DNA of 64,000 bases from Cyanobacteriota bacterium (GTDB lineage Bacteria; Cyanobacteriota; Cyanobacteriia; Thermostichales; Thermostichaceae): contig JANRIL010000019.1 of NCBI GenBank assembly GCA_033764955.1, positions 116,098 through 180,097 on the forward strand, written 5' to 3'. Of the stretch, positions 4,228 through 46,837 are shown in pieces. The translations under genes were made by a program, and so were the position numbers. Position 1 is the first letter of the stretch, and the number at the start of each line of letters is the position of its first letter. The notes beneath the pieces were generated by a model that was not told where the DNA came from, ran no database searches, and saw nothing but the letters and a program-made list of their open reading frames with translations.

Positions 4228-6678
4228 TCAACAAGCCACTTCCGAGTCGAGATGAAAAGGGATCCGCACGGTAAAGGTGGTCTGGTTGTTTTCACTTTCG
4301 ACAGCGATACTGCCATCCAAAAGAGAAACCCGTTGCTGAACCAGGGCTAAGCCTAATCCTGTACCCCCTTGCCGCCAGGGATCCGCATTGGGCACTCGAT
4401 AAAACTTCTCAAAAATATGGGGAAGCTCACGACTAGGAATTTCTACCCCCGTATTGCGGACAACAATCATCAAATGTTGTCTATTGGCGGTTACCTGCAC
4501 AAAAATATCCTCATGAGGGGGGGTATATTTGCAGGCGTTGTTGAGCAGCTCGCTCAAAATTTGCTCCAGACCCAACGGCAGCGCATAAATTTGAGGCAAG
4601 TTTTGGGACAATTCGACGGTTAAGGTTTGTTGACGGCTTTGGGCACGGTCATAAAAGGGCTTGATAACCGTTGGGATCCAACTTTGTAGATCCATCTGCT
4701 GAAATTGTTGGGGATCGGGATTGGCTTCCAATCGTTGCAGATCCAGCAGATCGTTAATCAGGCGAATTTCCCGCTCACATTCCTCCTGCAAAATTTGCAG
4801 ATAACGAGTGATTTTGGCAGCATCCTGCAAATGGGTTACCTGGGGATGAAGCAGGCTAGTCAGGAGTTGAATAGCCATCCGAATACTGGAAAGTGGTGTA
4901 CGTAACTCATGGGAAACGGTACTCAAAAAGTCATTTTTGAGGGCATCCAGACGACGTAGTTCTATGACTTGAGCATTGAGTTGGGCGGTGCGATCCTGAA
5001 CTTTGGCCTCTAAATCTTGGTTGAGGGTTTGGATTTGCCCAAACAGTTGACCCTGTTGAATGGCAATAGCTAACTGATCGGCAATCGCCTCCACCAGAAC
5101 CTTTTCAGAATTGAGCCACTGTGCCGATAGATTTTCACTGGCTAAGGCTAAATATCCCCAAAAAGTTGTGGGGTTGGATTCAGAAATAGGTTGGGGGATC
5201 TGCGAACTCAGGGATAGGGGTACAAATAGAGAAGTCCTGGCCTTATCCATTAACCAATGGGGGGATGGTTGGGATCCCGTCTGCTGGATGAAGGTCATGG
5301 ATTCATTACTACCAGAAGCTAATGACGGAAGACTCGCTTCTGCCGCTAAGAGAGTGACGATTTCAAACCGTTTGAGATGCTGGGTAATGGGATGGGGTTG
5401 ATCGGGCAAAATAGAGCCTAATTCATCCAAATGACTGTGATGGCGGCGATAGTCGGCTCGATTGATCCAAACCGCTTGTTCGGGCAGATATTGGGCGATA
5501 ATCACCTGATCCACATGCAAAATTTGGCTAATGGCTGCCACAGCCGTTGAAAAGATATCTTCCAAATGCAGCGAGTTGCGAATGGCTTGAATGACTTGGT
5601 TGAGGGCACGTTCCCGTTGTGCCTGTTGCTGACTGTGCTGATAAAGTTGACTTTGTTGAATAGCACTTTCCACCTGAGATCCCAGGTTTTCCAAAAAGTG
5701 CATCTGCCAGGAATGCCAATGGCGGGGATGCAGGTAGTGATGCACCACCAATAGACCCCAAAACTCCTCCCCCTGCATGAAGGGAAAACAAAGCAGCGAC
5801 TTAATGGGAGGGGCGATCGGGCTAAAAGGAATGTCAGCAAGAGGAGACTGAAACAGATCCGGTAGAGCATAGCTGCGTCCGGCCTGCAAATGGGGGAGCA
5901 GTTGTTGACACCACTCGCGGTTGAGGGAGGTTTGCAGGAGGCTGGGGTGCTCGGCCTGATGAGCCTCAGCAATCACAAGCGGGGATCCCTGCGGCCATTT
6001 ACGACAGATCAAGACACTATCCGCCTGCAAAAACTGCCGCACCTCTTGCACCGTCGTGGTCAAAATATCATTTAAATCGAGGGATTGACGAATATGAGCT
6101 GTGATGGTGCTCAGCAGTTGTTCTTGGCGATTTTGTTGTTGCAGCGTTTCGAGGGTGCGACTCGCTTGGAGTAGCCGTTGCATCCGTTGTCGCAACACCG
6201 CCCAATGGATAGGCTTGGTCACATAATCGGCGGCTCCAGCGGCAAAAGCCCGATCCACCGAAACACTATCCTCCAAACCTGTGATCATCAAAACAGGGGT
6301 ATTGTGGCTATTGGGCAGGGCTTTCAGGTGGCTACAACAGGCAAACCCGTCCATAACGGGCATGATGGCATCCAGCAGGATAATGTCCGGTTGCAACTGT
6401 TGAAAGAGTCGCAAACACTCCTCCCCATCAATGGCCTCGACAACGCGATATCCTTCCCCAGCTACCAGATGACGTAGCCATTGTCGCGTGACCCGATCAT
6501 CATCCACCAATAACACCAAGGGATCCATGGTGGGGGTGGGGGGTGGGATGGGGTCGAGGGTCTCTAGAAGCATCGATAGCTGGAGATATGGAGGAACCTG
6601 CTGAGCAGGATCAAGCAGCAGCCCATGTTGAGAAACACGAACTGTATCTATTTTCAACCGCGAAATGGCTGGGCGCAT
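4228..6678 (-). CDS. Hybrid sensor kinase REC-GAF-GAF-HisKA-HATPase (true start probably ATG 6573 or 6528)
   Basis: Receiver domain (LLVDDD, ILLDAIMP, TKP), two GAF domains (IRQSLDL/IRNSLHL), H-box SHELRTPL, N-box ELLNNACKYT, G2 box GGTGLGL. Confidence 0.9.
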   Translation of the reverse strand: MRPAISRLKIDTVRVSQHGLLLDPAQQVPPYLQLSMLLETLDPIPPPTPTMDPLVLLVDDDRVTRQWLRHLVAGEGYRVVEAIDGEECLRLFQQLQPDIILLDAIMPVMDGFACCSHLKALPNSHNTPVLMITGLEDSVSVDRAFAAGAADYVTKPIHWAVLRQRMQRLLQASRTLETLQQQNRQEQLLSTITAHIRQSLDLNDILTTTVQEVRQFLQADSVLICRKWPQGSPLVIAEAHQAEHPSLLQTSLNREWCQQLLPHLQAGRSYALPDLFQSPLADIPFSPIAPPIKSLLCFPFMQGEEFWGLLVVHHYLHPRHWHSWQMHFLENLGSQVESAIQQSQLYQHSQQQAQRERALNQVIQAIRNSLHLEDIFSTAVAAISQILHVDQVIIAQYLPEQAVWINRADYRRHHSHLDELGSILPDQPHPITQHLKRFEIVTLLAAEASLPSLASGSNESMTFIQQTGSQPSPHWLMDKARTSLFVPLSLSSQIPQPISESNPTTFWGYLALASENLSAQWLNSEKVLVEAIADQLAIAIQQGQLFGQIQTLNQDLEAKVQDRTAQLNAQVIELRRLDALKNDFLSTVSHELRTPLSSIRMAIQLLTSLLHPQVTHLQDAAKITRYLQILQEECEREIRLINDLLDLQRLEANPDPQQFQQMDLQSWIPTVIKPFYDRAQSRQQTLTVELSQNLPQIYALPLGLEQILSELLNNACKYTPPHEDIFVQVTANRQHLMIVVRNTGVEIPSRELPHIFEKFYRVPNADPWRQGGTGLGLALVQQRVSLLDGSIAVESENNQTTFTVRIPFHLDSEVAC

Positions 6679-6807
6679 CCTGATTTCTACTACAGAAACC
6701 GATCAATTGGTTGCTCTGGAGTTACAAGAGTCTGGAGGCACAACCTCCCGCACAAACTAGGACGTTCTTCCCCTTGTTCCCCACTCCTTCCCCACCGCAT
6801 CTGTTCT

Positions 6808-6895
6808 GGGCAACACCCCAAATCAGCGGTGGCTAGTAGCCTTGGTAACCCAACCAACTATCTTTATACCGTCCGCTGCATTTGGATTATTAGAC
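6808..6895 (-). repeat. attC-like (59-be) recombination site closing the cassette
   Basis: Minus strand reads GTCTAAT-AATCCAAAT[G]CAGCGG[A]CGG...CCACCGCTGATTTGG-GGT-GTTGCCC: an 88-bp imperfect palindrome with two unpaired bases, starting 18 nt after the upstream stop codon. Confidence 0.75.
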
Positions 6896-6913
6896 CTTGC
6901 GCAAAGACATCAT

Positions 6914-8020
6914 TCATAGTATTACCGCTTCAACTGGTCGCCGTAGTGATCGCTGAGTCTCAGTACCATATCCAAAACGGACAACTAGATCTGGTCTGAG
7001 ATCACCAATGCCAAGATAAGTAGCGAATTGTGGACGTAATGATAAAACCTCAACTGGCTGGTTCAAAAATGCATTTTTTATGCCTAGTGCAGTTGCTTGC
7101 AAGGCGAACCGCTCGTAACATCGTCCTGTTTCAACCCAATGTTCCTTATCGTTACGCTCAGACACAAATACAGCAATCCCCGCAGAGGTACGAATGTGTT
7201 TAGCATATTTGTCGTTTTCACTCTTGGTTGTAAAAAACAAATTCAACAATCTCATCCCCAGCCAGCGAGGAACAATAGGATTTCCTGACGAACCAGCAAA
7301 TAGCCCATCCCTTTTGCTCAAGACTTCGTCATGGCTGAATCTAATCCAAGATTTCAGTTCCTCAACAAAGGCTCGATCATTCATCTGCGCTGTATTACCC
7401 TGAACAACATACTCCAGGATGTTCTCAATTTGGGCTTTTTCGGTGATCAGCAATATCCTGACCCCATTGCCCTGCCCTGTCGCTTCAAGGGAGGCTAAAT
7501 CAGCGGTGCTTAATTTTCTACCGTCATACTCAACTCGACTGCATTGACGTTGAGGAATCGCATTAAAAAGGTCAGAAGATATTATTTTTGAGGGTTCTAA
7601 GGTGACTTTCACCCTGTCATCAACAGAATCGAAATGTGCAAATCCGTGCTTGCCAAATGCCTGTGCCGCTTGAATCAGATTTTCGGCAGCACAGCCTAAA
7701 CTCACAAACAAATGATGGTCATCAGGATCAACAGCAGGGCATCTCCGTGCCCAGTCTGGCAAAATTGAAATGGTTTGATCTGCAATCGTGAATTTCCAGC
7801 ATTGCGTATTATGACTCGACGCAGCTAAGGTAGCGTAGCGAACCAGTTCATGATTGACTGCTATCAGGTCGTTCGTTGAGTTATCTAAGGTATGTCGCCA
7901 AGTATCACGGACGGTATTGTTGTATCGACCGTTAGACTGATGAGCAGTTCCTATTGCATATGTCATTGCTCCTCCCGTCAGTGCAGTAAGACCTAAAATA
8001 ATTTGTCTTCGACTCAGCAT
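6914..8020 (-). CDS. Acg-like FMN-binding nitroreductase-family protein with a twin-arginine-like signal
   Basis: LAASSHNTQCWKF, SLGCAAENL and C-terminal RFGYG...RSLRRP motifs; N-terminal SRRQII followed by a hydrophobic stretch. Confidence 0.8.
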   Translation of the reverse strand: MLSRRQIILGLTALTGGAMTYAIGTAHQSNGRYNNTVRDTWRHTLDNSTNDLIAVNHELVRYATLAASSHNTQCWKFTIADQTISILPDWARRCPAVDPDDHHLFVSLGCAAENLIQAAQAFGKHGFAHFDSVDDRVKVTLEPSKIISSDLFNAIPQRQCSRVEYDGRKLSTADLASLEATGQGNGVRILLITEKAQIENILEYVVQGNTAQMNDRAFVEELKSWIRFSHDEVLSKRDGLFAGSSGNPIVPRWLGMRLLNLFFTTKSENDKYAKHIRTSAGIAVFVSERNDKEHWVETGRCYERFALQATALGIKNAFLNQPVEVLSLRPQFATYLGIGDLRPDLVVRFGYGTETQRSLRRPVEAVIL

Positions 8021-8030
8021 CAGTAAACCC

Positions 8031-8447
8031 TCAGTCTGAAACTTGGAGTGATACCCTACGGATTTTTGCAGCGATGAGCGGGGATAGCATTAACCAGACT
8101 AAGCCAATAGGCATTAAGCCACCTTGCAACAAATTATAGTCAGCACCGATTTGCTGCCATGAATAGCCTAAGACAAAAAAACCCAGACTAATCTCGAATA
8201 CGACGGTTAGCAGCAGCCACAGTATACCAATGCCCAAAAGTTGGGAAAAGTGCGATACATGAAGCCATCGGATAAATAACGTGGCGATCATCAACACCAA
8301 TACTGATCCAATAGCAAATGAAACTTGATGAGCAAGAGGATCACCCAGAAATGGCACTAGGCAAAAGATCCGAGCAGCACCATTTAAGCTCTCCACAAGA
8401 ATAAATACAAGCCAAATCACAATGCTTTTCAGGATGATTATGGTCAT
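8031..8447 (-). CDS. Hypothetical integral membrane protein (about 4 TM segments)
   Basis: 138 aa, strongly hydrophobic; AAGGA RBS upstream; ends 10 nt before the nitroreductase-like gene. Confidence 0.75.
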   Translation of the reverse strand: MTIIILKSIVIWLVFILVESLNGAARIFCLVPFLGDPLAHQVSFAIGSVLVLMIATLFIRWLHVSHFSQLLGIGILWLLLTVVFEISLGFFVLGYSWQQIGADYNLLQGGLMPIGLVWLMLSPLIAAKIRRVSLQVSD

Positions 8448-8568
8448 ATGTCATGTCCTTACAACCAAAGTGCCCTCTAGCTATGAGAGTAAAACTGAAA
8501 ACTGAGTAACTTGTGAGAAATTCTTGCGATTATAATTCCGATCAGTTGGTTTCGGTCTAACAAAGCGG

Positions 8569-9534
8569 TTAAGCGGGGAAAAGGGTTTGGAGCACCTGAG
8601 CGGGCAAAATAGAGGTAATCTTTTGATCGGCAGCCCGCACCCAGCGATAGGGGCCTTGGGAGGGCAGGAGGCGATGGGGATCCGTTGGGCCAAAGAGAGC
8701 CAGCAAAGGGGTTTGGGTGGCAACGGCTAGGTGCATGGGGGCGCTATCGGTGCAGAGGAGCAGGGTGGCTCCGGCGATCATGCCCGTCAGTTGACTGATC
8801 TGGCGAGGACGGGTTAGGTAGAGATCCGGTTGCCGATCCAAAAAGGCTTGGGCTAGCTCCTGATCCTCAGGGCCAATCAACAGAACCATCGGCAGCTCAG
8901 GCCGTTTTTTCTGAAAGCCCTGCATGATCTCTAGCCAACGCTCCACCGGATAAATCTTTTGAATACCCTTGTTGATGGAGATCTGACTGGCTCCGGGATG
9001 GATCAACACATAATCAGACTTGTCGCCAAACAAACGCTGCCGCTCCTGTTCACACCAATCGAGAGCCGGCTTTTTGAGGCGAATTTGCGGTAGGGGAGTG
9101 GTGGTAGCCCCCGGAAATCCTTGCAGCAGATCCGCATACATACTCGCGGCATACTGCTCCTCTTTGAGGGGGACTGCATCCGTTAACCACGGACCTGTTG
9201 TTTGTCCATAGCCCACCCGCTTGGGGATCCCGGTCAACCAGAGCAGCAGCTTCAGCCCCCAGGAACGCCCTAGACTGACAACCCCGTCATATTGCCGCTC
9301 CCGAATCCGCCCCAAGAGATCGCTGAGATCCCCCAAAGACACCTGTTCCTTAAAGGCAAAGGTGAGGACACGATCCACGGAAGGACAGACCTCATAAGCC
9401 CCCGCCGCTCGTGGTTCCACCATCACCTCGATTTCCGCCTGGGGAAACCGTTGCCGCAGCCCCGCCAGTGTGGGAAAAAATAAGATCTGATCGCCGATTC
9501 CACCGGGAACAAGGGCTAAAATACGCTCGTGCAT
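8569..9534 (-). CDS. Glycosyltransferase family 9 (heptosyltransferase-like)
   Basis: GGIGDQIL, IHPGAS and DSAPMHLAVA...LFGPT motifs. Confidence 0.9.
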   Translation of the reverse strand: MHERILALVPGGIGDQILFFPTLAGLRQRFPQAEIEVMVEPRAAGAYEVCPSVDRVLTFAFKEQVSLGDLSDLLGRIRERQYDGVVSLGRSWGLKLLLWLTGIPKRVGYGQTTGPWLTDAVPLKEEQYAASMYADLLQGFPGATTTPLPQIRLKKPALDWCEQERQRLFGDKSDYVLIHPGASQISINKGIQKIYPVERWLEIMQGFQKKRPELPMVLLIGPEDQELAQAFLDRQPDLYLTRPRQISQLTGMIAGATLLLCTDSAPMHLAVATQTPLLALFGPTDPHRLLPSQGPYRWVRAADQKITSILPAQVLQTLFPA

Positions 9535-9748
9535 GGGGTTGACCTGCGTAAGAGAGATCAGGAACGTGGCCGAGGAACAGGACTTAGGCTAATTATGAGC
9601 TTAATTATGAATGGGATCAGGAATTAAGGATAATTAAACTGGCCGATTTCGCGGATGCTGAGTTAAGTATTTCTGCTGTGACGGCTGAATAACCTTAACT
9701 ATTGTAACGGCTTCAGTCCCTGGATCATCCTTATTCTCCCCAGTCTGC

Positions 9749-10897
9749 ATGGATTCTATTCCCCTTCTTGATCTCCGCCAGCAATACCAGGCGTTAGCCC
9801 CTGAGTTAGTTCCCCAGATTGAAGCCCTTTTGGCCTCTGGTTATTACATTGGTGGAACCGCCGTTCAACAGTTTGAGGAAGCGTTTGCTCAGTTTCTGGG
9901 ATCCGGATCCCCAACCCCTCTAGAAGTGATTGGCTGCAACTCCGGTACCGATGCCCTCTATTTGGCGCTACGGGGTCTGGGCATTCAAGCAGGGGATGAG
10001 GTGTTAACCAGCGCCTTTAGTTTTTTTGCCTCGACGGGGGTGATTTCTCAGGTGGGAGCACGCCCTGTCTTTATCGATATCAACCCGCAAACCTTTAATC
10101 TGGATCCGAGCCAGATTGCTCGCCACATTACCCCCCGCACCAAGGCGATCATTCCCGTGCATTTGTTTGGGCAGCCCCTCGATATGACGGCTGTGATGGC
10201 GATTGCCCGCCAGCATCAATTAGCAGTGATTGAAGACTGCGCCCAAGCGGTGGGAGCCTGCTGGGCTGGTCAAACGGTGGGCACGTTTGGGGAGGTGGGC
10301 TGTTTTAGTTTCTTCCCCACCAAAAACTTGGGGGCGGCGGGAGATGCCGGAGCAATGGTCGTCCGGGATCCCCATCTTGCAAAAACTCTGCGGATCCTCA
10401 AAGATCACGGCCAAAGCCAGCAATATCGCCATGAGGTGGTGGGCATCAACAGTCGTCTGGATGCGCTGCAAGCCGTCATTTTATCGGTCAAATTGCGCCA
10501 TCTGCGGGAGTGGAATGGGCGACGCCGCAGTTTAGCCGACAGCTATACCCACCTGCTGCATGGGATCCCTGATCTCCTTCTCCCCAGCGCCATTGTAGGG
10601 GGAAATAGCGTCTGGCATCAGTACACGGTACGCATTTTGGGGGATCCGACTCGGCGGCGGGATCGGGTACGCGACTATCTACAACGCATCGGCATCAGCA
10701 GTCGCATTTATTATCCGGTTCCTCTGCACTTACAGGCGGTTTATCACCCCTTGGGCTATCAAGTGGGGGACTATCCAGAAGCGGAAAGGACAGCTCAGCA
10801 AGTGTTGTCATTGCCCTTTTTCCCAGAGCTAACCTTGGCTCAGCAAAAACGGGTGGCTAGTGGGTTAGCCAGCGCGATGCAAGCGACTACCACCTAG
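9749..10897 (+). CDS. DegT/DnrJ/EryC1/StrS PLP-dependent sugar aminotransferase
   Basis: NSGTDAL, EDCAQA, SFFPTKNLG (PLP lysine), NSRLD. Confidence 0.93.
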   Translation: MDSIPLLDLRQQYQALAPELVPQIEALLASGYYIGGTAVQQFEEAFAQFLGSGSPTPLEVIGCNSGTDALYLALRGLGIQAGDEVLTSAFSFFASTGVISQVGARPVFIDINPQTFNLDPSQIARHITPRTKAIIPVHLFGQPLDMTAVMAIARQHQLAVIEDCAQAVGACWAGQTVGTFGEVGCFSFFPTKNLGAAGDAGAMVVRDPHLAKTLRILKDHGQSQQYRHEVVGINSRLDALQAVILSVKLRHLREWNGRRRSLADSYTHLLHGIPDLLLPSAIVGGNSVWHQYTVRILGDPTRRRDRVRDYLQRIGISSRIYYPVPLHLQAVYHPLGYQVGDYPEAERTAQQVLSLPFFPELTLAQQKRVASGLASAMQATTT

Positions 10898-10904
10898 CTT
10901 GTCT

Positions 10905-11001
10905 GCCTAACGCCCTGCCGCTCAGCCGCGAGCGGCGGGCGCGGCTGAGAGAAGGAGTCTAATGCAACTCGCCGCTTGTCGGCTGCAGCGGCTGGTTAGG
11001 C
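10905..11001 (-). repeat. Solitary attC-like site
   Basis: Minus strand reads GCCTAAC-CAGCC-GCT[G]CAGCCG[A]C...GCGGCTGAGC-GGCAGGGC-GTTAGGC. RYYYAAC/GTTRRRY ends are perfectly complementary; 97 bp. Confidence 0.8.
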
Positions 11002-11290
11002 AGGGCGAGGCTACAGACTAAGCTCGACCCGCAGGGCTACACCGAAGGCTATATTGATGCCACTATTTGTGACATTTTCTCTGCGTTTTGCCACAAAACC
11101 CCCTTTCTGAAAAATCGGGGGTGGTAGCTGAGCGGTGGTTTTGTTATCCTGTCGCTAACACTTGCTCATCGTGCCCTCAAACCCTCACCTTGAGAGGCAT
11201 ACAGCAAATTTCATCAGCGTTGGGTAGAGTGTCTTCCCCCGTTGATTGTGCGTTAAATGGCAGGCAATTTCAGGCTTGGAGAAAAGCGCC

Positions 11291-44594: not shown

Positions 44595-45656
44595 ATGAAT
44601 CCCCAAGCGGTTGCCCGTGTTCTGGATGCTAACCTCGATCGTGCGCGGGAGGGGTTACGGGTTTTAGAAGAGTGGTTTCGCTTGGGGTTGGAGTCGGTAA
44701 ACTGGGCGGCGGAATGCAAGGATATGCGCCAGGAGCTAGGGGGGTGGCATCACCCCAGTTTGCGCTCTGCCCGAGATATCACCACCGATCCCGGCACCCA
44801 ACTGGAGCATCCCCAGGAGCAACAACGTCGGGATTTGGAACACCTTTTGCAGGCCAATTGCAGCCGCGTGCAGGAGTCGCTGCGGGTATTGGAGGAATAC
44901 GGCAAATTGGGGGAATCTCGGCAGTGGTTGCCCCCCACTATGCCCCAGGTCTGTAAACAGATGCGCTATCGTCTCTACGAAATGGAGAGCATTTTGCTGG
45001 CTACGACTTTACGTCGCCGCCTAGAACGGGCGCAGCTTTATTTGATCACCAGTCCGATCGAGGGTTGGCTAGCCGCTGTGGAACAGGCATTGCAAGGGGG
45101 TGTCACTCTCGTGCAGTATCGCCACAAAACCGCTACCCCACGAGAAAAATTACGGGACTTAGAGCAGCTCAAGCTCCTCTGTCAGCGCTATCACGCTTTG
45201 CTCATCGTCAACGATCATGTGGATTTAGCCCTGCTGGTGGATGCCGATGGGGTACATCTCGGACAGACGGACATGCCCGTGGCGGCGGCTCGCCAATTAC
45301 TGGGATCCCAGAAGCTGATCGGGCAATCGACCACCAATAGCCAGGAGTTACAGGCGGCTCTGGCGACTTCTGCGGATTATGTGGGGGTTGGGCCGGTCTA
45401 TGCTACCCCCACCAAAGCCGGCAAAGCCCCCGCCGGACTGGATTATGTGCGTTTAGCGGCTGCGACCGTCCGCCTGCCTTGGTTCGCCATTGGTGGAATT
45501 GACGCCGACAATTTGCCGGCAGTCTGTGCCGCCGGAGCCAGCCGAGTGTCGGTCGTGCGTTCCTTGATGGAGGCGGTGGATCCGGCTCAAACGGCACGGC
45601 TCATGTTGACCCAGATACAATCCCAGACCACAACGATCCCGGTCAGCGGTTGTTGA
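44595..45656 (+). CDS. thiE: Thiamine-phosphate synthase (cyanobacterial long form)
   Basis: DANLDRAREGLRVLEE N-domain; QYRHK, ND..D, GVHLGQ.D, TPTK, AIGGI. Confidence 0.95.
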   Translation: MNPQAVARVLDANLDRAREGLRVLEEWFRLGLESVNWAAECKDMRQELGGWHHPSLRSARDITTDPGTQLEHPQEQQRRDLEHLLQANCSRVQESLRVLEEYGKLGESRQWLPPTMPQVCKQMRYRLYEMESILLATTLRRRLERAQLYLITSPIEGWLAAVEQALQGGVTLVQYRHKTATPREKLRDLEQLKLLCQRYHALLIVNDHVDLALLVDADGVHLGQTDMPVAAARQLLGSQKLIGQSTTNSQELQAALATSADYVGVGPVYATPTKAGKAPAGLDYVRLAAATVRLPWFAIGGIDADNLPAVCAAGASRVSVVRSLMEAVDPAQTARLMLTQIQSQTTTIPVSGC

Positions 45657-45781
45657 AAATTTTGCAACATCACAAGCGACTTTGGTTGATTGGTTGCACT
45701 AGAATTGCTATACCGTTTCAGAAGCCTACTATAGTGGAGATTGCTAAAGTGTATTGAACTTAAGTGCTAACAGCCAACTGG

Positions 45782-46837
45782 CTAACGGGAGGTACAAACT
45801 TGGGATCCCACCTGCTGACGGATGGCTTGCAGTTGCTCCAGTTTGGCCAAGGCATCTCCAGCAGCCAAAATGGCTTGAGCAAGCGCCATACCCGCCCGTA
45901 AATCCGCTGCATGACCCGCCTGCCAGAGATAAAATCCGCCATTCCACACCACGGCTGCTGATAGAGGAGTGAGGGATCCCTCTAGCGTTTGCTGCATTTG
46001 CTCAATCAAGAGGGGGAAATCCGGCAAGGGGGGAGAAGCCGCCGCCATCCCATAGTCGCGGGGGCGCAGCAACAACCGCTCCTGACCCAGGCTCAAAATC
46101 ACCGTCCGATCCTGAGGCAAATCACAACTGCCCTCCAAGCCTTTGACCGTGATCCACGACTCAACCCCCCGCAAGCTCAAGGTAGTGTGCATCGTCTCCT
46201 CAGTCGGGGGATGGACAAACCCAGATATCAAACGAAACGAGCCAGCATAGGGAGTCCAGATCAGTTCAAGGGTGGCTAAAGGAGGCCGTTTGCCTATTTG
46301 ATCGCGGTAGCTCATCAACATCTGCGCTGCTGGGAAATGATCGGGCAGATAGAGAAACCCCAGCCCTGTTGCCTGCAAAATCTGCCCCATCTCGGCCAAC
46401 TCCAGCCCCCGCCAATCCACCCCTAACCCTAACCAGAGATCGAGTAAGGGGATCCCGTATTTGGTGGGGCATCGCCCAGAACCATGCAACAGCACAGGGG
46501 ATCCCGCTACCGCCAGGAGGAGAGCCACCAACGCCGCCAGCGGAGCCGTGCGCGACCGCCCATCATAGGGATGCCCGAAGATGAGCAGGGGACGAGCCAG
46601 GGGTAAGGGGGGGAGCAGTGGACCCAGTTCGCTGTAGGCATCAAGCATTCCCGCCAATTCAGATGGAGTAGGACGTTTAATGCGGTGGGCAATCAAAAAA
46701 GCGCCGATTTGAGCCGGAGTGGCTTCCCCCGTCAGCATCATTCGCATGGCTTGGGCGGCTTCTTCCCGATTGAGATCCTGGCTGGTGTGCTGTCCACTGC
46801 CTACTTTTTTCACCCATTCCCGAAAGCGTTCACTCAT
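45782..46837 (-). CDS. cnaT: Anthranilate phosphoribosyltransferase-like protein, CnaT-like
   Basis: FREWVKKVGSG, AQIGAFLIAHRIK, YDGRSR, GFVHPP; lies directly downstream of an ntcB-like gene. Confidence 0.72.
   Translation of the reverse strand: MSERFREWVKKVGSGQHTSQDLNREEAAQAMRMMLTGEATPAQIGAFLIAHRIKRPTPSELAGMLDAYSELGPLLPPLPLARPLLIFGHPYDGRSRTAPLAALVALLLAVAGSPVLLHGSGRCPTKYGIPLLDLWLGLGVDWRGLELAEMGQILQATGLGFLYLPDHFPAAQMLMSYRDQIGKRPPLATLELIWTPYAGSFRLISGFVHPPTEETMHTTLSLRGVESWITVKGLEGSCDLPQDRTVILSLGQERLLLRPRDYGMAAASPPLPDFPLLIEQMQQTLEGSLTPLSAAVVWNGGFYLWQAGHAADLRAGMALAQAILAAGDALAKLEQLQAIRQQVGSQVCTSR

Follow-up and report, generated by a model that had tools for sequence, protein, structure and literature searches.

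The window analysed here, a 64,000-nt stretch of the genome of a Cyanobacteriota bacterium of the family Thermostichaceae (genome G000, contig C9, positions 116098-180097), carries an isolated integron cassette inserted among ordinary chromosomal genes. Unless stated otherwise, the positions given below are those of the window and are read on the minus strand. Our analysis indicates, with a probability that we place near 0.85, that positions 8560-6814 correspond to an intact two-gene cassette with its attC site, which was inserted by an integron integrase (IntI) at a secondary GTT site that is not an att site. The first-pass annotation of this stretch had proposed an insertion of this kind, with the integrase acting in trans, and the proposal is well supported by the attC family present in the genome, by the arrays that adjoin the intI genes, by the boundaries of the cassette and by the native upstream flank. 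The two genes and the hairpin were all located, by reading the minus strand, where that annotation had placed them.

The attC site spans positions 6797-6904, as judged from a covariance model (R1) and from the covariation seen in its family, both described below, and has its crossover at G6814|TT6813-6812. Its inverse core (R''), GGTCTAAT at 6896-6889, lies at the position initially reported, and starts 17 nt after the stop codon of the nitroreductase gene, not 18 nt after it as had been stated. The 5' arm of the hairpin (L'') reads CCAAAT[G]CAGCGG[A] at 6885-6872, with the extrahelical G at 6879 and the extrahelical A at 6872; after a loop of about 40 nt comes the 3' arm (L'), CCGCTGATTTGG at 6829-6818, followed by G(6814)|TTGCCC. 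The R'' box, GTCTAAT, fits the inverse core consensus RYYYAAC apart from its last base, and the R' box formed with the cassette's own start is GTTAGAC, which fits GTTRRRY. As expected for a cassette that has been inserted, R' in its present place reads GTTGCCC. Moreover, the 5 nt that precede the AAT of the inverse core pair at 5/5 positions with the cassette's own start, TTAGACC, and at about 1/5 with the bases that now lie downstream, TTGCCC, so that the split core described in the annotation is indeed there. Note that the fold energy of the hairpin alone is unremarkable (z -1.46 and -1.87), and its significance therefore comes from the score of the family model, not from the fold.

A search with the locus revealed short matches to the hairpin elsewhere in G000 and in other genomes. 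The family was collected with a loose pattern, which gave seven distinct sites, of which one matched on each strand; an nhmmer profile of these seeds retrieved about 60 sites, and the best 39 were aligned (alignment A1), leaving out the window copy. R1 was built from these 39 other G000 sites, with a structure written from their consensus, which runs from YTAAC through a short spacer to a variable stem that has a bulged G, then to CAGCGG, a bulged A, the conserved loop, CCGCTG, the second half of that stem and finally GTTA. This model matched the window site over its full length, with 68.6 bits and an E-value of 1.1e-16, and the hairpin is thus a member of the attC family of this genome. The structure is conserved as such. 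Paired cells in A1 amounted to 75.4%, compared to 67.6% after shuffling, and double-change cells to 94, compared to 47.5, values that 0/500 shuffles reached in both cases. The L stem is 85% paired, with compensatory changes in 10/13 pairs. The covariation score was 0.281, compared to 0.151 after shuffling and 0.05-0.11 when the partners were slid by 1-3 columns, although the structure was derived from the same sequences and is for this reason favoured over the slid versions. The extrahelical bases (A1 columns 37 and 45) are on the arm that carries the top-strand AAC, separated by a 6-bp stem. On the top strand the second one is A in 39/39 sites, that is, T on the bottom strand, and the first is G in 35/39 sites.

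The split core could also be analysed across the genome. In 26 consecutive attC pairs of G000, the inverse core matched the start of its own cassette at 3.96 of 5 positions on average, with 14 perfect matches, compared to 1.85 of 5 for the start of the next cassette and 2.02 +/- 0.22 for random starts. This comparison is symmetric and cannot tell which of the two neighbouring attC sites travels with an open reading frame (ORF). That it is the downstream one follows from the copies in two other genomes (loci L010 and L098, see below), which show the boundaries.

The annotation had suggested a genome-wide scan with an attC model, together with a search for intI. This provided 80 R1 sites at E <= 0.01 and two intact integron integrase genes. 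The first, at C9:19-960 on the minus strand, scored 462.5 bits with TIGR02249 and lies in an open frame of 366 aa; the second, at C38:63588-64529 on the plus strand, scored 451 bits in an open frame of 351 aa. Both are well above the cut-off of 265 bits, of full length and free of stops, and the C9 integrase aligned end to end with the Vibrio IntI4 protein (2A3V; E 6e-92, residues 54-365 against 6-318). Eight R1 sites at C9:1685-8481 (plus strand) adjoin the C9 gene and five at C38:53270-61840 (minus strand) adjoin the C38 gene, with scores of 37.7-102.5 bits, and both arrays have the classical layout with a divergent intI. The C9 integrase gene is about 122 kb from the window cassette on the same contig. 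Thus, the claim that there is no integrase nearby is correct for the window; the genome, however, has two of full length. An integrase encoded elsewhere in the genome, one of the two origins that had been offered, is what we found, rather than a lost one. We also observed integrase fragments or pseudogenes at C36:180-860, C4:4-123, C30:655-831 and C38:182627-182934, some with in-frame stops and several with attC sites within a few kb.

The 80 sites group into 51 loci when sites within 4 kb are joined: 38 single sites, five loci of two, five of three, and one each of four, five and eight. Thirty of the single sites have E <= 1e-4 and a distance of over 4 kb to any contig end; these are distributed over 21 contigs. 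We searched the surroundings of 35 single sites for the 7-mer made of TT plus the complement of the site's own inverse core. Within 3 kb it was found upstream in 11 cases, downstream in one and on the other strand in five, compared to 6.3 +/- 2.2 for permuted k-mers, and it was preceded by G in 8 of the 11 upstream cases. Some of these eight have an attC-like sequence just upstream, so the count of single sites is an upper bound.

The window attC is isolated. It is a single site, about 122 kb from intI, and the nearest other matches on the contig, 39 kb and 79 kb away, are both weak: one at window positions 45617-45722 (C9:161714), with 32.9 bits and E 1.2e-6, and one at C9:43277, with 25.3 bits. 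The former is just 3' of a host-like ORF of 351 aa (45782-46837), with a GC content of about 0.58 and several GGGATCCC motifs, and may be a decayed lone attC. A palindrome at 10894-11010, with a GC content of 0.68 and the ends GCCTAAC and GTTAGGC, also gave a weak R1 match (23.6 bits, E 5e-4); it comes directly after the stop codon of a DegT aminotransferase gene, with no minus-strand ORF upstream. Sites of the family are not confined to this genome. R1 matches at E <= 1e-4 were obtained in 32 of 41 related genomes, G000 included, with counts from 1 to 93, and they are scattered along the complete chromosomes of related genera; nine genomes gave none. An intI gene above the cut-off is present in 20/41. 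One complete genome, assembled as a single contig (G037), has 8 R1 matches at E <= 1e-4 and no integron integrase match at E <= 1e-30, indicating the persistence of cassette sites where no integrase is detectable.

These results bear on the possibility of a native operon made up of the two genes, with a hairpin that would act as a transcription terminator or be a generic repeated palindrome with a mere resemblance to attC. The position of the hairpin, 17 nt past a stop codon, its unremarkable fold energy and the existence of copies of the gene pair without detectable attC (loci L064 and L065, see below) would all agree with this. We consider it very improbable, since the hairpin belongs to the attC family at E 1e-16, the same repeat makes up the arrays beside intI, and no T-run terminator accompanies it. 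The nine genomes without any match argue that R1 does not fire on generic hairpins, and the cassette is 90% identical across genera in which the neighbouring host gene is only 67% identical. An Rfam scan of 6400-8800 gave no match at E <= 1, and the attC model of IntegronFinder is not part of Rfam.

The base composition also speaks against a native operon and supports a foreign origin of the cassette. Its GC content is 0.439, compared to 0.569 for the upstream glycosyltransferase gene, 0.502 for the kinase gene downstream and 0.515 genome-wide, and GGATCC, a very abundant motif in this host (3.08 per kb in the genome), does not occur between 6521 and 8678. The annotation had described an AT-richer islet without the host motif GGGATCCC. 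The AT-richness holds, and the motif is indeed absent from the cassette, but with only 2.26 copies expected (P0 = 0.10) its absence is weak evidence. In this genome GGGATCCC is a lineage-specific hyper-abundant palindrome, with 4915 copies (1.29 per kb), 84 of them in the window, while the classical cyanobacterial palindrome GCGATCGC has just 109 copies.

Next, we compared the cassette with its copies in other genomes, which define its two ends. A genome of another genus of the same family (G010, locus L010) has an array that holds the window's cassette, with 90% identity over 8561-6884. The order in this array is an ORF, an attC ending in G|TTATGC, a membrane-protein ORF with its own attC, which starts with GCATAAC and ends in G|TTAGACC, and then the two genes present in the window. 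R1 scored the two attC sites upstream of these genes at 64.0 and 61.3 bits; locus L063 gave the same R1 scores and was not counted as independent. In the alignment of the window with L010 the homology starts precisely at G|TT, and contigs from two freshwater metagenome runs match 7793-8562 and are unlike the window beyond it. At the 3' end, the attC copies of the window, L010 and L098 show homology, including compensatory changes in the stem, and diverge after G|TT. Both boundaries, which the annotation had set at G|TT, are thus confirmed by independent copies. Note that the glycosyltransferase of G010 is only 67% identical to that of the window, compared to 90% for the cassette, which on these alignments appears to be mobile cargo.

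The same copies make it highly unlikely, even more so than a native operon, that another type of mobile element (an insertion sequence, a miniature inverted-repeat transposable element or a phage-type integrase) brought the segment and that its G|TT ends are coincidental. We considered this only because the islet is AT-richer, and found no support for it. The segment comes with no transposase, no inverted terminal repeats and no duplicated target, and the flanking genes encode a glycosyltransferase and a kinase. Moreover, both ends fall on the integron crossover and recur in other genomes, and attC sites have so far bounded each of the other copies whose ends are defined.

We then examined the insertion site. 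The upstream flank is a native host gene, encoding a family-9 glycosyltransferase (GT9; 8569-9534; Pfam PF01075, E 1.6e-25). Its stop codon TAA (8571-8569) is followed by CCGCTTT and then by G(8561)|TTAGACC (8560-8554), so that the left half of the target consists of the 8 nt from the stop to the crossover (8561-8568), whose last base, G(8561), is where homology with L010 begins. The C-terminus of GT9 (...QTLFPA*) and the position of its stop are kept in nine relatives, and therefore host sequence reaches within 8 nt of the crossover; the DegT gene, divergent to GT9, is kept in 8/9 of them. The right half of the target starts with TTGCCC and is the remaining intergenic stretch of 135 nt (6679-6813) that precedes a response-regulator/GAF/histidine-kinase hybrid gene (4228-6678; Pfam Response_reg, GAF, HisKA and HATPase_c). 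The target therefore contains G|TT, which fits 5'-GWT-3', and the crossover has host sequence to its left and to its right. The gene 3' of GT9 differs in each of the nine relatives, the kinase gene being there in 0/9, and by gene order this flank would be a recurrent synteny break point in the family. In three relatives (L016, L019 and L015) we observed by eye a tRNA-like sequence on the opposite strand, directly after GT9.

This context is also what allows the most serious alternative to be weighed, namely that the cassette is the last survivor of a former array or integron at this place, whose upstream cassettes and attI/intI were lost by deletion or rearrangement. Arrays do break up, as the intI fragments and the many integrase-less attC clusters of this genome show, and the available part of Cury et al. 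(PMC4889954) counts integrase loss and rearrangement among the origins of such elements. In addition, two copies of CCGCTT are present just 5' of the crossover (8563-8576), one within the final GT9 codons and the other in the 8-nt spacer; the motif is similar to the L' consensus of the family, CCGCTGA, and is at about the right distance from G|TT. We nevertheless regard the loss of an array as unlikely. The upstream junction is exactly G|TT, only 8 nt past the stop of GT9, a gene with a C-terminus and a DegT partner that relatives keep, and a random deletion would not stop on the crossover base. Moreover, there is no strong attC-like match within 39 kb on either side. In the case of insertion by an integrase, the upstream CCGCTT copies might have helped the enzyme to choose the site.

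Several observations weigh against insertion of the cassette at a secondary site, or against the attC assignment on which it depends. The insertion is deduced from its junctions alone, as the empty site was not found in the nine relatives that have GT9, and the genomes compared include none of the same genus. A metagenome scan with GT9 gave two distant matches only (22% and 54% identity over parts of the protein) and no close strain. Three sequencing runs (shares 0.05-0.06) matching 5800-9600 contained variants of the cassette and many attC copies, without strain-level flanks; none of their contigs skips the cassette, which in the absence of flanks has no bearing either way on the empty site, and the only joint seen in them skips 66 nt inside the membrane-protein gene. 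The CCGCTT copies are excluded as the remnant of an older site only for the part that codes for GT9. The inverse core ends in AAT instead of AAC, as is also the case in 6/39 family members. The recombining strand has C as the first extrahelical base of the family, in the place of the usual G. Finally, the attC call comes from the genome's own R1 model and not from the curated IntegronFinder model, and since the window copy was one of the seven seeds, the choice of the members was not fully independent of it.

With these points taken into account, we propose the following model for the insertion by an integron integrase. A free cassette, which may have been excised from an array or have come in by transfer, would present its folded bottom-strand attC, and one of the integron integrases of the genome would exchange one strand between the G|TT of attC and a chromosomal G|TT. 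Replication would then resolve the junction, giving the product [host ...G]|[TTAGACC ... cassette ... attC ...G]|[TTGCCC host]. In such a product the inverse core should still match the first bases of the cassette itself. Because there is no att site at the upstream junction, excision of the cassette is probably difficult. As it has the same orientation as GT9, read-through from this gene would be the likeliest source of its transcription. A scan of 6500-9000 for promoters and terminators gave three of each, compared to 3.0 and 2.4 expected, which is chance level and provides no evidence of a cassette promoter.

The cassette is 1747 nt long, from TT(8560-8559) to the G(6814) of attC. It begins with a leader of 113 nt (8448-8560), whose first bases are TTAGACC and which is kept in L010 from G|TT on. 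This is followed by a gene for a hydrophobic protein of 138 aa (8031-8447) and, after a gap of 11 nt, by a gene for an Acg-family oxidoreductase of 368 aa that binds flavin mononucleotide (FMN; 6914-8020). The latter matched NF047509 over the whole profile with 290.9 bits (cut-off 199), as well as Pfam Nitroreductase. At its N-terminus there is an SRRQII motif that by eye looks like a twin-arginine translocation (Tat) signal; no Tat signal was matched by hidden Markov models in this protein. The Acg-type FMN oxidoreductase is probably exported. The 138-aa protein is presumably a membrane protein, of unknown family: it had no Pfam or NCBIfam match, and the Atlas gave only clusters of hypothetical membrane proteins.

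The 80 best loci with a related oxidoreductase were examined and R1 was run on their flanks. An attC-like site is present directly 3' of the oxidoreductase gene in L098 and L140, 0.4-0.8 kb 3' of it in L120 and L067, and 5' of it in L080, L081, L130, L141, L128 and L093, which are mostly betaproteobacterial records. The membrane ORF precedes the oxidoreductase gene by 11 nt in L063, L064 and L065 and by 56 nt in L119, and comes just after it in L075, L076 and L138. This recurrent neighbourhood suggests that the two proteins are probably partners, with the 138-aa protein probably acting as the small membrane partner of the oxidoreductase. In L064 (Pseudanabaena mucicola FACHB-723) and L065 (a metagenome-assembled genome of Leptolyngbyaceae) the gene pair has 77-86% identity to that of the window and R1 detected no attC after it; in L065 the shared part of the leader begins about 35 nt into the cassette. 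These two pairs may be domesticated or pre-cassette forms.

The route proposed here for the cassette has been published, and no new mechanism is revealed by our data. The novelty that the first-pass annotation had seen in an array-free dispersal was overstated, since both secondary-site insertion and isolated cassettes (SALIN) formed by attC x attG recombination have been reported. In the available part of the preprint that describes SALIN (bioRxiv 10.1101/2022.09.11.507474), the genome sites used are 5'-GWT-3', and the cassettes are expressed from host promoters and occasionally excised. CALIN, single attC sites and integrons in Cyanobacteria are treated in the accessible sections of Cury et al. 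(2016), who proposed secondary-site insertion as one origin of CALIN, and the same subjects are also covered in what is available of PMC8618304. For cassette dispersal in cyanobacterial chromosomes, the literature we found, supplements not included, contains only passing mentions of this phylum, in which integrons are barely studied.

What the window offers is a clean natural example of the genome-insertion route, with both junctions intact, a sister copy in an array of another genus and candidate integrases in the same genome as the cassette. The features that we think worth following are the genome-wide number of lone sites, at least eight of which keep an identifiable G|TT start in agreement with their own inverse core, and the first extrahelical base, which is unusual. 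It is tempting to speculate, at slightly less than even odds in our estimation, that off-array insertion is a main route of gene gain in G000 and its relatives and no rare accident, and that a family with C as this first base hints at a co-adapted integrase pocket. With its dozens of lone attC sites, G000 could be a natural system to study how non-proteobacterial integrases choose their targets, whether lone cassettes stay mobile, and what share of cyanobacterial accessory genes arrived by off-array insertion.

Finally, the element can be compared with the known systems. Its attC has the geometry of the attC-aadA7 and VCR sites, as given in the available part of Nivina et al. (2016; PMC5027507), which describes the extrahelical bases and G as the usual first one on the bottom strand: R and L boxes with an AAC/GTT crossover, extrahelical bases located on the arm that lies opposite the bottom-strand AAC, a 6-bp stem that separates the first of them from the last, and a conserved bottom-strand T. 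The family differs from those sites in its first extrahelical base, C on the bottom strand, in a short unpaired spacer between the boxes (2-3 nt) and in a loop region of unusually conserved sequence. Like the CALIN and the sedentary chromosomal integrons of PMC4889954, in its accessible sections, the genome has a homogeneous, lineage-specific attC family, arrays with a divergent intI and integrase-less clusters elsewhere. Unlike CALIN, the element in the window has only one attC, and those sections set this class aside as possibly false positive; here, the single site has exact boundaries and an independent copy within an array to validate it. The closest likeness is to SALIN, with one cassette and one attC, no att site or intI nearby, a minimal 5'-GWT-3' target (GTT in this case) in ordinary chromosomal DNA and an expression that would depend on a neighbouring host promoter. 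In contrast to the class 1 and Vibrio sites used in E. coli or V. cholerae, this is a natural cyanobacterial case with its own attC family, in a genome that itself has two intact integrases and 38 single sites, compared to the one found in most SALIN-bearing genomes (1847 of 2469, according to the available part of the preprint).

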